Of a stretch of 64,000 nucleotides of DNA, positions 11,066-55,029 are shown in pieces. The notes under the pieces are model-generated. The model was not told the origin of the DNA. It saw only the letters and a program-made list of their open reading frames with translations, and ran no database searches. Within the stretch, counting starts at the first letter, position 1. The number at the start of each line of letters is the position of its first letter. Source of the stretch: Escherichia coli (GTDB lineage: Bacteria; Pseudomonadota; Gammaproteobacteria; Enterobacterales; Enterobacteriaceae); NCBI RefSeq assembly GCF_041886205.1, contig NZ_CP169029.1; one strand, written 5' to 3'. A program made the translations under genes and the position numbers.

Positions 11066-14000
11066 TTATTCCGGGCGCGGCTGCAGCGGGAAGCGGCGGC
11101 GCACCAGCACAAAGAACAGCGGCACGAAGTAAATAGCCAGAATAGTGGCCGAAATCATCCCGCCCATTACGCCAGTACCCACCGCATGCTGACCACCGGA
11201 ACCGGCACCCGTGCTGGTTGCCATTGGCAATACGCCGAAGATAAATGCCAGCGAGGTCATCAGAATCGGGCGTAAACGCTGACGGCAGGCGTGGAGCGTC
11301 GCTTCAAACAGGTCGTGGCCTTTTTGGTTCATCTCGTTAGCAAACTCGACGATCAGGATGGCGTTTTTCGCCGATAAACCAATGACCGTTAACAGGCCCA
11401 CCTGGAAGTAAACGTCGTTTTCCAGCCCGCGCATCCAGGTTGCCAGCAGCGCGCCGATTACCCCCAGCGGCACGACCAGCATTACCGAGAACGGCACCGA
11501 CCAGCTTTCATACAACGCAGCCAGACACAGGAATACCACCAGCAAGGAAATGGCGTACAGCGCCGGAGCCTGCGCGCCGGAAAGCCGCTCCTGATACGAC
11601 ATCGCCGTCCACTCCAGACCAAAGCCGTTTGGCAGCTGCTTCACTAACGATTCCATAATATCCATCGCCGTACCGGTACTGACCCCCGGTGCGGCTTCCC
11701 CAACAATCTCAACCGCAGAATAACCGTTATAGCGTTCCAGACGCGGCGAGCCTGTTTCCCAGCGTGAGGTCGCGAAAGCAGAGAAGGGCACCATGCCGCC
11801 ATTTTTATTTCGGACATACCAGAGATTGATGTCATCTGGCAGCATGCGATACGGCGCAGCTGCCTGCACATAGACTTTCTTCACGCGACCGCGATCCATA
11901 AAGTCATTCACATAGCTCGAACCCCAGGCGGTTTGCAGTGTGTCGTTAATATCGTCGATAGCAACGCCCAGCGCCTGAGCTTTACGCTGGTCGATATCAA
12001 TCTGCAACTGCGGACTGTCGTCGAGGCCGTTATGGCGCACACGGGTTAGCTCCGGGTTTTCCGCCGCCAGCGCCAGCAACTGATTACGTGCTGCCATCAG
12101 CGCATCGTGACCCGCTCCAGCGTGGTCCTGCAACTCCATATCAAAACCTGCAGAACTACCAAGACCGCTAATTGCTGGCGGGCTGCTGGCGATAACGCGA
12201 GCTTCTTTAATTTGGTTAAACGCCTTCGTTGCACGCTCGATAATGGCAAACGAGGTGCCGGTCTTACTGTCGCGTTCGCTCCAGTCTTTCAGGCGGATAA
12301 ACATTCGCGCCACGTTTTGCCCGTTACCCCCAGGGCCAGAACCAACGGTGGCAAACACCGACATGATGTTGTCTTTTTCATGGGTGAAGTAGTATTTCTC
12401 GATTTGCTCAACGACTTTCAGGGTCTGTTGTTGCGTTGAACCGCTGGGCAACTGTACCGAGGTAGTAAACATGCCACGGTCTTCCAGCGGTAAGAACGAC
12501 GTCGGCAAACGCAGGAACAGGAACACCATGCCGCCAAGCAGCAGGACATAAATCACAATCCAGCGCAGGCTACGGTGGAGAATTTTCGCCACCCCTTTTT
12601 CGTAGCGTTCGGCGTTGCGGTTAAACATCTGGTTAAACCAGGCAAAAAAGCCTTTTTGCCCATGATGCTCACCTTTTTTCAGTGGCTTAAGTAGTGTGGC
12701 ACACAGAGCCGGAGTGAGGATCATCGCTACCAGTACTGACAGCACCATCGCCGCAACAATGGTAATAGAGAACTGGCGATAGATGGCACCGGTGGTGCCG
12801 CCGAAGAAGGCCATTGGTACAAATACCGCCGAAAGAACCATCGCAATCCCGACCAGTGCCCCCTGGATCTGCCCCATCGATTTACGTGTGGCTTCGCGAG
12901 GAGTGAGTCCTTCCTCACTCATAATACGTTCGACGTTTTCCACCACCACGATGGCGTCATCCACCAGCAGACCGATCGCCAGCACCATCGCGAACATGGT
13001 TAAGGTGTTGACGCTGTAACCGAAGGCGTAAAGTACGGAGAAGGTTCCCATCAACACCACCGGCACGGCGATAGTGGGTATCAGCGTGGCGCGGAAGTTT
13101 TGCAGGAACAGATACATAACGAGGAAAACCAGAGCGATAGCTTCCAGCAGCGTTTTCACCACGTCTTCAATGGAGGCTTTAACAAACGAGGTGGTTTCAT
13201 ACGCCACCTTGTATTCCAGTCCGTGCGGGAAGTACTGCGCCAGCTCGTCGAGACGATTGAGCACCAGCTCCGCTGTCGCCATTTCGTTTGCGCCGGAGGC
13301 CAGTTTTACCCCCAGCCCGGAGGCTGGCTTACCATTGAAGCGGCTAAGATAATCGTATTTCTCCGCCCCCATTTCGACGGTGGCGACATCGCCCAGCCTT
13401 ACCTCTGAGCCGTCTTGATTCACCCTCAAGGTGATATCGCGGAACTGTTCTGGTGTTTGCAGCAGTGACTGGGCGTTAATGGTGGCGTTGAGCGCCTGCT
13501 TATCGACGGAAGGTGTACCACCAAGTTGCCCAACCGCAATCTGCGCGTTCTGTGACTCAATGGCATCAGTGACATCTTTAGCTGTCATCTGGAAACTGTT
13601 GAGTTTCGCCGGGTCCAGCCAGATACGCATGGAATATTGCGAACCATAGGCATCAATATCCCCGACGCCATTTACGCGGCTTAACGGGTCCTGAATATTA
13701 CTGGCAACATAATCAGCAATATCCTGTTTATCCATCGAACCATCGGTAGAGACGAAGGCAATGGTCAGAATGTTGGTATCGCCGGTTTTACGCACCGTCA
13801 CGCCCTGATTTTGCACCGCCTGCGGTAACTTTCGCATGGCTGATTGCAGCTGGTTTTGTACTTGCTGCACGGCTTCGTCCGGATCGGTGCCTGCTTTAAA
13901 ACTTAAAGTGACAGATGCCTGACCGGTGCCACTGCTCTGAGATGACATATACATGAGATTATCGAGGCCGGTCATATTTTGCTCGATAACCTGGGTCACG

Positions 14001-18996: not shown

Positions 18997-20040
18997 ATGC
19001 GCTATCGCATTTTCCTTCTCTTTTTTTTCGCTTTGTTGCCGACGTCTTTGGTGTGGGCGGCACCAGCGCAACGGGCGTTTTCCGACTGGCAGGTCACCTG
19101 TAATAACCAAAATTTCTGCGTGGCGCGTAATACGGGCGATCATAATGGACTGGTGATGACCCTGAGCCGCAGCGCCGGGGCGCATACCGATGCCGTTTTA
19201 CGTATTGAGCGCGGCGGGTTGAAATCGCCGGATGCGTCTGAAGGGGAGATAGCGCCACGGCTGCTGTTAGATGGTGAGCCGTTGGCGTTAAGTGGTGACA
19301 AGTGGCTGATTTCACCATGGTTATTAGTAACCGATGATACGGCAACCATCACCGCGTTTTTGCAGATGATTCAGGAAGGGAAGGCGATCACCTTACGCGA
19401 CGGCAATCAGACCATTTCTCTGAGTGGCTTAAAAGCGGCGTTGTTGTTTATTGATGCTCAGCAAAAGCGCGTTGGCAGTGAAACCGCGTGGATAAAGAAA
19501 GGGGACGAACCGCCGCTCAGCGTACCGCCCGCGCCTGCACTGAAAGAGGTCGCGGTGGTTAACCCAACGCCGACGCCACTCTCACTCGAAGAACGCAACG
19601 ATTTGCTGGATTATGGAAACTGGCGGATGAATGGTCTGCGCTGCTCGCTTGATCCATTGCGTCGTGAGGTGAATGTCACTGCGCTGACTGATGATAAAGC
19701 GCTGATGATGATTAGCTGTGAGGCAGGGGCCTATAACACCATTGATTTGGCATGGATTGTGTCGCGTAAAAAGCCACTAGCCTCGCGCCCGGTTCGGTTG
19801 CGTTTGCCGTTCAACAACGGGCAGGAGACGAATGAACTGGAACTGATGAACGCAACATTTGATGAGAAATCGCGTGAACTGGTGACCTTAGCGAAAGGGC
19901 GCGGATTAAGCGATTGTGGCATTCAGGCGCGCTGGCGCTTTGACGGTCAGCGTTTTCGCCTGGTGCGTTACGCCGCAGAACCGACCTGCGATAACTGGCA
20001 TGGGCCAGATGCCTGGCCCACGTTGTGGATCACCCGTTAA
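18997..20040 (+). CDS. ypfG: DUF1176 periplasmic protein YpfG
   Basis: 347 aa with N-terminal signal peptide (MRYRIFLLFFFALLPTSLVWAAP); recognised YpfG. Confidence 0.88.
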   Translation: MRYRIFLLFFFALLPTSLVWAAPAQRAFSDWQVTCNNQNFCVARNTGDHNGLVMTLSRSAGAHTDAVLRIERGGLKSPDASEGEIAPRLLLDGEPLALSGDKWLISPWLLVTDDTATITAFLQMIQEGKAITLRDGNQTISLSGLKAALLFIDAQQKRVGSETAWIKKGDEPPLSVPPAPALKEVAVVNPTPTPLSLEERNDLLDYGNWRMNGLRCSLDPLRREVNVTALTDDKALMMISCEAGAYNTIDLAWIVSRKKPLASRPVRLRLPFNNGQETNELELMNATFDEKSRELVTLAKGRGLSDCGIQARWRFDGQRFRLVRYAAEPTCDNWHGPDAWPTLWITR

Positions 20041-20057
20041 ACAAAATGGCGGGGACA

Positions 20058-20130
20058 TGTAGGCCGGATAAGACGCGTCAGAGTCGCATCCGGCAATCAG
20101 CGTCCGGCAATCAGCATCCGGCGATCACCA
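20058..20130. repeat. REP element plus three degenerate ~14-bp tandem repeats
   Basis: gtaggccggataagacgcgtcagagtcgcatccggc (REP) followed by gcatccggcaatca / gcgtccggcaatca / gcatccggcgatca. Confidence 0.7.
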
Positions 20131-22134
20131 TCAGGCACCTTTCACTCCCAGCACCTTATGCGCTTTTGCCACAATATTCTCGGCGGTAAAGCCAAAGAAC
20201 GGGAACAGCTTATCCGCCGGAGCAGATTCCCCGTAACCCGTCATCCCGACAATTGCCCCTTTCAGACCAACATACTTGTACCAGTAATCGGCAATACCTG
20301 CTTCCACCGCTACGCGAGCCGCAACGTTAGAAGGCAACACCGACTCGCGATAGTCCTCATCCTGAGCGTCAAAAATATCGGTCGAGGGCAGGGAAACTAC
20401 GCGTACATTGCGACCTTCTCCTGCTAATTTCTCTGCCGCTTGCAGGGTAATTTCCATCTCTGAACCGGTGGCAATCAGAATAATATCTGGCTTACCGCCG
20501 CTGTCTTTCAGCACATAACCGCCACGAGCAATCTCTTTAACCTGATCCGGCGTACGTTCCACCTGGGCCAGATTCTGCCTGGAGAGGATCAGTGCCGTCG
20601 GTCCGTTGTGGCGCTCAACCGCCAGCTTCCAGCCCACCGCCGCTTCCACCTGATCGCACGGTCGCCAGGTGCTGAAATTTGGCGTTAAGCGCAGACTGGC
20701 CAGTTGCTCAACAGCCTGGTGCGTCGGACCATCTTCGCCCAGGCCAATTGAGTCGTGGGTATAAACCATAATCTGCCGCGCTTTCATCAGTGCCGCCATT
20801 CGCGCGGCGTTACGGGCGTATTCAACAAACATCAGGAACGTCGCGGTATACGGCACAAAGCCGCCGTGGTGCGCAATGCCGTTGGCGATAGCGGTCATGC
20901 CAAATTCACGCACCCCGTAGTGAATGTAGTTGCCCGCCGGATCTTCCTTCAGCGAAACAGAACCTTTCCAGATGGTCAGGTTGCTGGGAGCCAGATCCGC
21001 CGAACCGCCGAGCAGCTCCGGTAGTATCGGCCCGTAAGCGTTAAGCGTATTTTGCGAAGCCTTACGGGTAGCGATTTTCGCCGGATTTGCCTGTAACTCA
21101 TTGATATATTTCTGAGTCGTTTTCTCCCAGTCCTTCGGTAAACCACCGCTCATCCGACGGGTAAACTCTTCTGCCAGTTGCGGATGAGCCTTTTTATAGG
21201 CGGCAAACTTCTCATTCCAGCTCTGCTGCGCTTTTTCGCCTTTTTCGCGGGCATCCCAGGCGTGATAAATCTCTTTAGGGATTTCAAATGGCGGATGGTG
21301 CCAGCCCAGTTTTTGCCGTGCCAGCGCCACTTCTTCTTCCCCCAGCGGTGCGCCGTGCGCCTCTTCCTTACCTGCTTTATTCGGCGAACCAAAGCCAATC
21401 ACCGTACGGCAGATAATCAGCGACGGCTTATCTTTCACGCTTTGCGCTTCAAGGATCGCTTCCTTCACCGCCTGCGGATCGTGACCGTCGATTTCATGGA
21501 TCACATGCCAGTGATAGGCTTCAAAACGTTTTGCCGTATCGTCGGTAAACCAGCCTTCGGTTTCTCCATCAATCGAAATACCGTTGTGATCGTAAAAACC
21601 AATCAGCTTGCCCAGTCCCAGCGTGCCCGCCAGCGAACAGACTTCGTGGGAAATACCTTCCATCAGGCAGCCGTCGCCCATAAACACATAGGTGAAGTGA
21701 TCGACAATTTCATGATCTGGCTGGTTAAACTGCGCCGCCAGCGTACGCTCTGCTATCGCCAGCCCGACGGCGTTCGCCAAACCTTGTCCAAGTGGACCGG
21801 TGGTGGTTTCAACACCAGGCGTATAGCCGATTTCCGGGTGGCCTGGGGTTTTTGAATGCAACTGACGGAAGTTCTTCAGTTCTTCCAGCGGCAGGTCGTA
21901 GCCCGTCAGATGTAGCAAACTGTAGAGCAGCATTGACGCGTGACCGTTGGAAAGAATAAAGCGGTCGCGATCATACCAGGTTGGGTCGGTAGGGTTATGT
22001 TTAAGAAAATCGTTCCACAGCACTTCAGCAATATCAGCCATGCCCATCGGCGCGCCGGGATGACCAGAATTGGCTTTTTGTACCGCATCCATACTGAGTG
22101 CGCGAATCGCATTGGCAAGGTCTTTTCGGGACAT
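20131..22134 (-). CDS. tktB: Transketolase 2
   Basis: 667 aa from ATG 22134 ([18 protein letters not shown]...), GGAG RBS; ORF track extends 21 codons further upstream to an unlikely start. Confidence 0.92.
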
Positions 22135-33447: not shown

Positions 33448-33731
<284 letters not shown>

Positions 33732-33762
33732 AATAAATAACAACTAACAGGGAGTAAAGGCG

Positions 33763-53942: not shown

Positions 53943-55029
53943 GATTGCCAATATCAAGAAGTCTTTTGGTCGCACCCAGGTGCTGAATGATATCTCACTG
54001 GATATTCCTTCTGGTCAGATGGTCGCGCTGCTGGGGCCGTCCGGTTCCGGAAAAACCACGCTGCTGCGCATTATTGCCGGGCTGGAGCATCAAACCAGCG
54101 GGCATATTCGCTTCCACGGTACCGACGTGAGCCGCCTGCACGCACGCGATCGTAAAGTCGGTTTCGTGTTCCAGCATTACGCGCTGTTCCGTCATATGAC
54201 GGTGTTCGACAATATCGCTTTTGGCCTGACGGTGCTGCCACGTCGCGAGCGCCCGAATGCCGCAGCCATCAAAGCGAAAGTGACAAAATTGCTGGAGATG
54301 GTCCAGCTTGCCCATCTGGCGGATCGTTATCCGGCACAGCTTTCCGGCGGCCAGAAACAGCGCGTGGCGCTGGCGCGCGCGCTGGCTGTTGAACCGCAAA
54401 TTCTCCTGCTTGATGAACCGTTTGGCGCGCTGGATGCGCAGGTGCGTAAAGAGCTGCGTCGCTGGCTGCGTCAACTGCATGAAGAGCTGAAATTCACCAG
54501 CGTGTTCGTGACCCACGACCAGGAAGAAGCGACCGAAGTAGCTGATCGTGTAGTGGTGATGAGCCAGGGCAATATCGAGCAGGCTGATGCGCCGGACCAG
54601 GTATGGCGCGAACCAGCGACCCGATTTGTGCTCGAATTTATGGGCGAAGTGAACCGCCTGCAGGGAACCATTCGCGGCGGGCAGTTCCATGTTGGCGCAC
54701 ATCGCTGGCCGCTGGGGTATACGCCTGCGTATCAGGGGCCGGTGGATCTCTTCCTGCGCCCGTGGGAAGTGGATATCAGCCGCCGTACCAGTCTCGATTC
54801 GCCGCTGCCGGTACAGGTACTGGAAGCCAGCCCGAAAGGTCATTACACCCAATTAGTCGTGCAGCCGCTGGGGTGGTACAACGAACCGCTGACGGTTGTG
54901 ATGCATGGCGACGATGCCCCGCAGCGTGGCGAGCGTTTATTCGTTGGTCTGCAACATGCGCGGCTGTATAACGGCGACGAGCGTATCGAAACCCGCGATG
55001 AGGAACTTGCTCTCGCACAAAGCGCCTGA
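53932..55029 (+). CDS. cysA: Sulfate/thiosulfate ABC transporter ATP-binding protein CysA
   Basis: 365 aa; Walker [13 protein letters not shown] signature LSGGQKQR; overlaps cysW by 11 nt. Confidence 0.93.

Follow-up and report, generated by a model that had tools for sequence, protein, structure and literature searches.

Are the three short repeats that crowd the end of tktB in this Escherichia coli sequence parts of a single palindromic element, or do they form a tandem array in their own right? If they form an array, how is its length changed, and does the length matter to the genes on either side? The window, i.e. the whole 64-kb stretch of DNA that was analysed, carries two convergent genes at this point. 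One is ypfG, which encodes a DUF1176 protein and occupies 18997-20040 on the plus strand (ORF list; RefSeq annotation of matching E. coli records, K-12 b2466); its stop codon TAA, at 20038-20040, is the left edge of the spacer. The other is tktB, the gene for transketolase 2, on the minus strand at 20131-22134 with its stop codon UGA at 20133-20131 (ORF list, RefSeq annotation, K-12 MG1655 b2465). The start of tktB was set by the annotated gene length of 2,004 nt; the longest open reading frame extends to 22197. The 90-bp convergent spacer between the two genes (20041-20130) consists wholly of REP-derived sequence and short flanks, and reads, in order, ACAAAATGGCGGGGACA-TGTAG-GCCGGATAAGACGC-GTCAGAGTC-(GCATCCGGCAATCA)(GCGTCCGGCAATCA)(GCATCCGGCGATCA)-CCA, after which comes the tktB stop codon.

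The ypfG-tktB locus was found in 5,425 of 5,426 complete E. coli genomes. A literature search found no paper that names tktB together with ypfG, and none that combines REP, tandem duplication, slippage and hairpin; the locus is not listed in the supplements of the REP papers that were examined. REPs, BIMEs and the variation between strains in tandem BIME number are already well described (PMC3333891). What is particular here is a 14-nt unit smaller than a REP, a companion duplication of the other REP half, and a stop codon that lies in an old REP arm. We favour, and consider rather probable, the view that this is a REP-derived minisatellite: slippage would alter its length, and it would serve as a passive spacer within the 3' untranslated region that the two convergent genes share.

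The REP and its tandem units

One y-type REP is present, at 20059-20097, with its GTAG on the ypfG-sense (plus) strand; it is an inverted repeat for which a hairpin is predicted on both strands. The GTAG (20059-20062) is followed by the 5' arm GCCGGATAAGACGC (20063-20076), a loop, and the 3' arm GTCGCATCCGGCA (20083-20095). The inverted-repeat arms, at 20063-20074 and 20083-20094, are 83% complementary and enclose an 8-nt loop. The REP consensus includes a conserved GTAG at the 5' foot of the hairpin and an imperfect palindrome (PMC3333891), and in the window GTAG directly precedes GCCGGAT. The element is extragenic, situated between two stop codons, and has similar copies elsewhere, as further GCCGGAT...ATCCGGC palindromes are found at 33449-33681 in the window. 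It resembles the y/z2 REP elements of E. coli in its GTAG, in an imperfect 7+4-bp stem with an AA/GC mismatch, in lying outside genes where two convergent genes end, and in being present many times per genome (PMC3333891). The locus differs from these elements in that the tktB array reiterates one arm and the linker, 14 nt in all, and not the whole ~35-nt palindrome, and in that an older z2-like arm forms part of the coding end.

The repeat unit is the lower 3' arm of the y-type REP (ATCCGGC) together with a 5-nt linker, and the array lies between the REP hairpin and the z2-like arm that holds the tktB stop codon. Read on the plus strand, unit 1 (GCATCCGGCAATCA, 20086-20099) is the REP's own lower 3' arm with the linker AATCA. 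Unit 2 (GCGTCCGGCAATCA, 20100-20113) carries an A-to-G change and is predicted to pair hardly at all with the REP 5' arm, and unit 3 (GCATCCGGCGATCA, 20114-20127), of the GATCA type, adjoins tktB. Beyond these lies a degenerate partial fourth copy, CCATCAGGCA (20128-20137, plus strand), which is a z2-like REP arm (ATCAGGC) and takes in both the last Ala codon of tktB and its stop codon (GCC UGA U in the tktB sense).

How firm is the tandem structure? Tandem Repeats Finder reports an array at 20086-20137 with a period of 14, 3.7 copies, 84% matches, no indels and a score of 76, and a repeat search finds three in-register copies at 14-nt spacing. A 21-nt pattern spanning the unit junction has three matches (with at most two mismatches), against 0.00 expected from 100 dinucleotide-preserving shuffles of the window. 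In the whole 64-kb window there is no other site with two same-orientation ATCCGGC arms within 25 nt. Coordinates, repeat finder, in-register copies and shuffles thus all agree with the original prediction, which had placed three tandem repeats of ~14 bp here. The contrary outcome, one canonical REP devoid of tandem structure, was looked for, and tandem structure was found instead. That the units are REP fragments is likewise upheld, as all of them contain ATCCGGC, which is complementary to GCCGGAT in the REP 5' arm (20063-20069). Two details of that description have to be amended. The repeats had been said to follow a REP and to run to the tktB stop; CCA (20128-20130) and then the stop codon (20131-20133) do come directly after them, but unit 1 is the REP's own 3' arm and not a sequence that follows it. 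Likewise, the three units do end before the stop codon, but the degenerate fourth copy continues past it.

A coding role for the array was considered and rejected, as the 14-nt period shifts the frame with each unit and the sole overlapping open reading frame (20025-20189, plus strand) is antisense to the end of tktB. A known RNA family at the locus was also rejected: an Rfam scan of 19500-20700 at a permissive threshold yielded nothing beyond REP-like matches to naRNA4 that fall below threshold (30.2 bits, where the gathering score is 59.5). As naRNA4 is a REP325-derived nucleoid-associated RNA, the match is general REP similarity only.

Bacterial REPs also occur in larger tandem constructs. 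As in BIME arrays, where the number of tandem REP-derived units at a locus varies between E. coli strains (PMC3333891), unit number at tktB is variable. A BIME unit, however, comprises a REP, an inverted REP and linkers, ~100 bp in all, whereas the tktB unit is a 14-bp fragment of a REP, and the tktB allele of the window is a single REP without an inverted partner; the combination of REP, inverted REP and linker is not found in the window spacer. A classic tandem BIME array does occur elsewhere in the window, at 33448-33732, between the end of one open reading frame (33446) and the start of another (33763). It has a period of 100 bp and 2.8 copies that are 96% identical, each unit consisting of an inverted y-type REP and a second REP.

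Alleles in E. coli and the junction in related species

Alleles are denoted here by two numbers, the copies of the 5' half TGTAGGCCGGATAAGACGC and the copies of the 14-nt unit, and were read directly from the spacers of individual records. The window has (1,3). Other combinations are (1,2) (records L001 and L096), (2,2) (K-12, L002 and L003), (2,3) (L006, an O121 strain), (2,5) (L004), (2,6) (L091), (2,7) (L090), (3,3) (L092) and (3,4) (L094). Two records, L005 and L093, have a variant last unit, and one, L095, has a decayed REP. The suggestion that copy number may vary between strains is therefore correct: 1, 2, 3, 4, 5, 6 and 7 units were read directly in E. coli genomes, and up to six identical units stand in succession. 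The array has two attributes of a minisatellite (VNTR), head-to-tail copies and whole-unit differences between strains. The GATCA-type unit beside tktB is kept in most alleles, those that lack a REP included.

Rough estimates over the 5,426 complete E. coli genomes are two units in ~80%, one unit in ~15% (with a different dispersed repeat replacing the REP), three units in ~2%, and four or more in ~2.4% with a maximum of seven; these frequencies are skewed by clonal oversampling in the database. The counts rest on record spans in an evenly spaced sample and on the coverage of a synthetic long-array query. BLAST identity bands are unusable for short allele queries, as partial local alignments still score 100%. 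With the synthetic query, seven units were found in one genome, six in five and five in at least 54. In 132 genomes three or more perfect AATCA units follow one another, and another 58 are one mismatch away. Among 59 evenly spaced chromosomes, 34 have the length of (2,2), 14 that of (1,2) and eight are non-REP, with (2,3), (2,5) and (3,4) seen once each. At 99% identity or more the window allele is matched in 51 records; one of these, the pigeon isolate PT62, matches at 100%. For all the E. coli records listed, the best match of the unit array is the ypfG-tktB locus; the additional 'places' counted in a record are probably this same array aligned in a shifted register.

The other REP half has its own history. 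The 19-bp sequence TGTAGGCCGGATAAGACGC is tandemly duplicated in most E. coli, including K-12 MG1655 (L009, 5641-5734) and records L002, L003, L004 and L006; the window is without the duplication. Two rare alleles, (3,3) and (3,4), have three 5' halves, the outermost of which is z2-type. These duplications bear on the predicted folding. For K-12-type alleles two-tier nested hairpins are predicted, and for (3,4) a nested hairpin of three tiers, in which the outermost z2-type 5' half (GCCTGAT) would pair with the arm that holds the stop codon. In (2,2), (2,3) and (3,4) the composite hairpin is predicted to extend as far as the stop codon region; in the window allele it is not.

Some alleles have lost the REP or let it decay. 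The non-REP allele is present in 831 of the 5,426 genomes, ATCC 25922 among them, and has a GC-rich dispersed repeat in place of the REP. This repeat (...CCCCTCGCCCCTCTGGGGAGAGGGTTAGGGTGAGGGG...) lies at 161-262 of the records from CFSAN061771 (L007) and ATCC 25922 (L008), and is detectable at a median of six places per genome. It appears to resemble the enterobacterial 'boxC' repeat. Non-REP alleles keep one GATCA-type 14-bp unit beside tktB, and the same arrangement is found in a cryptic-clade Escherichia (L012). In E. coli S65EC (L095, 171-246) the REP is decayed, with two arm mismatches (GTAGACCGGAT...ACATCCGAC); the 442-bp span of this record recurs in 10 of the 59 sampled chromosomes, the sequence having been checked in L095 alone.

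Where did the spacer come from? A scan with the YpfG protein, one genome per species, gave 80 loci, in 71 of which both gene ends could be placed; E. albertii, E. fergusonii, E. marmotae and Shigella were not among the species that it yielded. Of these 71, all from other enterobacterial species, 21 lack a spacer altogether, the tails of ypfG and tktB overlapping by 11 or 4 nt (at ~2230-2245 of L013, L016, L019, L026, L028-L031, L040, L046, L053-L056, L059, L060, L066, L072, L076 and L083). The overlap in relatives indicates that the whole spacer is a lineage-specific insertion of repeats. The TktB C-terminus in the overlap loci is ...KVLNA*, NG* or NV*, compared with ...KVLGVKGA* in E. coli, and is three residues shorter in the form ...KVLNA*; the last tktB codons, like the Escherichia spacer, are thus lineage-specific.

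In an Escherichia sp. (L011, 2242-2331) and in two Citrobacter youngae-like genomes (L023 and L036), a z2-type REP (GTAGGCCTGAT...ATCAGGC) has the tktB stop codon inside its 3' arm, the tktB-sense strand reading GCC UGA U. Here a mobile repeat supplies the stop codon of tktB. A z2-type arm can provide a gene with its stop codon in this way; for a y-type arm this is impossible, as GCCGGAU contains no UGA. E. coli retains bases of the z2-like arm (CCATCAGGCA, 20128-20137), which is why the array found by Tandem Repeats Finder reaches 3.7 copies, and the stop-embedded z2-like arm is older than the 14-bp units. Two arms stand beside the stop codon in E. whittamii (L010) and in Citrobacter L015 and L017, with periods of 15 and 16 nt, and a full BIME (inverted REP and REP) is present at the locus in L010 and L011. 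The same junction has been invaded repeatedly, by REP types, BIMEs or other repeats that differ from species to species.

How unit number changes

Units would be gained and lost by slipped-strand mispairing, or by unequal exchange between tandem copies, during replication. The hairpin would probably aid slippage, and events would become more frequent as the array lengthens. The alleles of 5, 6 and 7 units all carry the marker GTAGACCGG in their first 5' half, and their transketolase has a single protein accession; they thus differ only by whole units on one background. Alleles (3,3) and (3,4) also have one transketolase accession in common. Short arrays appear constant: all 15 sampled records that are 100% identical to the K-12-type query, K-12- and B-derived laboratory strains among them, and three O157 records have the length of (2,2). 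Stability at two copies and stepwise change at five or more is the pattern predicted by slipped-strand mispairing, and it is from this pattern that we infer slippage. Minisatellites known to change by slippage likewise have short head-to-tail units, vary between strains by whole units and form stepwise series on one haplotype. The tktB array differs from them in its low copy number and in its apparently low mutability (two units in ~80% of genomes, and constancy in the sampled K-12-/B-derived and O157 records).

The origin of the first duplications poses a separate question. Both the 14-bp duplication and the 19-bp duplication on the other arm have exact junctions and are flanked by no obvious microhomology; a duplication newly made by slippage would not classically look like this. 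Could the REP-associated tyrosine transposase (TnpA_REP, or RAYT), and not replication slippage, have built the array and the 19-bp duplication? This enzyme cuts single-stranded DNA at C|T beside REPs and inverted REPs and in linkers, one consensus site being TGCC|TGAT(T/A); it also catalyses strand transfer, by which BIMEs have been suggested to amplify in tandem (PMC3333891; PMC8266576). All unit junctions are GC|TGAT when read in the tktB sense, like the TnpA_REP sites, the tktB stop region is TGCC|TGAT exactly, and the 19-bp junction in K-12-type alleles, GACGC|TGTAG, is also a C|T join. However, the parental boundaries that can be deduced would be C|G and G|T for the 14-bp unit and C|G and A|T for the 19-bp one; as these are not C|T sites, a simple cut-and-join of existing sites would not yield the units observed. 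The TGAT before each arm may be a mere part of the local repeat sequence. Strand polarity is a further difficulty, in that the single REP of the window has its GTAG on the strand opposite to that of the C|TGAT junctions, although a full BIME of the kind present in L010 and L011 would put a REP of GTAG orientation on the strand that has these sites. The stepwise alleles of 5, 6 and 7 units, for their part, are what slippage produces, and we regard construction of the array by the transposase as unlikely.

Repeated invasion of the junction by different REPs, BIMEs and other repeats in different species, and the presence in E. coli itself of a second, unrelated repeat allele, raise another possibility, namely that the units are decayed leftovers of several independent REP insertions and not copies of each other. 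This is extremely improbable. The units keep an exact 14-nt head-to-tail period and 13/14 identity, the non-palindromic linker AATCA included, up to six identical units occur in a row, and alleles on one haplotype differ by whole units only. The exact period and the common non-palindromic linker exclude independent decayed insertions in practice. Slippage acting on an array that derives from one REP arm remains the preferred reading. The array shows that sub-REP fragments, and not just whole REPs or BIMEs, can amplify in tandem.

The array and the tktB stop codon

Does unit number have consequences for tktB? Folding predictions for the window allele pair the innermost arm with the lone 5' arm, at a probability of ~1.0 for the tktB-sense strand and 0.99 for the ypfG-sense strand; for the middle, outer and stop-embedded arms the predicted probability is ~0. 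The predicted stable hairpin begins 36 nt after the tktB stop codon. With only the innermost arm predicted to pair, units 2 and 3 would behave as a spacer of ~28 nt. The extra units would then be functionless in themselves: as unpaired spacer in the shared 3' untranslated region of the window allele, they would set the distance of the REP hairpin from the stop codon. The hairpin itself most likely keeps exonucleases off the 3' ends of the talA-tktB and ypfG transcripts, and most likely attenuates read-through between the convergent genes, a role ascribed to it on the strength of published work with other REPs. The spacer need not be passive in every strain, since, where the 5' half is duplicated, the predictions have the extra units paired and the hairpin lengthened by them. 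No intrinsic (Rho-independent) terminator-like site was found on either strand at 19800-20400, and a promoter scan around the spacer gave no promoter motif on either strand. The array lies outside coding sequence and promoters, and is thus not a phase-variation switch.

Copy number might instead be a selected means of tuning, in which the stop-to-hairpin distance and, where the 5' half is duplicated, hairpin length affect TktB translation or transcript stability. REPs less than 16 nt from a stop codon have been reported to stall terminating ribosomes and to lower expression (Liang et al. 2015, via PMC12306157). At tktB the inner hairpin starts 8+14(b-1) nt past the stop for b units, that is at 8, 22 and 36 nt (the last in the window) and at up to 92 nt as b goes from 1 to 7. 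As with the stop-proximal regulatory REPs (Liang, Rudd and Deutscher 2015, via PMC12306157), a REP hairpin lies directly downstream of a stop codon, and in relatives the arm contains the stop codon itself. The window allele, however, departs from these REPs, so far as they are described via PMC12306157: its hairpin, 36 nt away, is beyond the reported 15-nt limit, and the outer arms, which stand at 8 and 22 nt, pair with a predicted probability of ~0. K-12-type alleles may fall within that distance through the predicted composite hairpin, which is modelled as extending to the stop region in (2,2), (2,3) and (3,4), though not in the window. Against selected tuning, ~80% of genomes have two units, and the alleles look lineage-bound and not switching. 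The REP hairpin is absent altogether in ~15% of genomes, and the S65EC-type allele, with its 442-bp span in 10 of 59 chromosomes, has a REP with two arm mismatches; loss and decay together speak against strong constraint. Selected tuning is on this evidence distinctly unlikely.

A bolder version would regard the spacer as a palindrome growing from its centre, with arms doubled on both sides of the loop, as (2,2) and (3,4) exemplify. Unit number would then be an evolvable dial of the hairpin-stop distance, and thus of transketolase B output, which the REP-associated transposase might drive. We consider this highly unlikely, and a passive spacer of variable length remains the favoured reading.

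Taken alone, the tktB array is a real but ordinary small length polymorphism, another polymorphic REP-derived spacer, and matters little. Its alleles nevertheless form a natural series at one gene, in which the hairpin lies 8 to 92 nt beyond the stop codon, is absent, or is nested. Such a series could test, without engineering, the rule, as reported, that REPs at 15 nt or less from the stop depress translation. The alleles of five to seven units could also serve as a minor typing marker within one lineage. Tandem Repeats Finder gave two more tandem repeats in the window, each of two copies, one at 11457-11517 with a period of 24 bp and one at 54428-54489 with a period of 33 bp.
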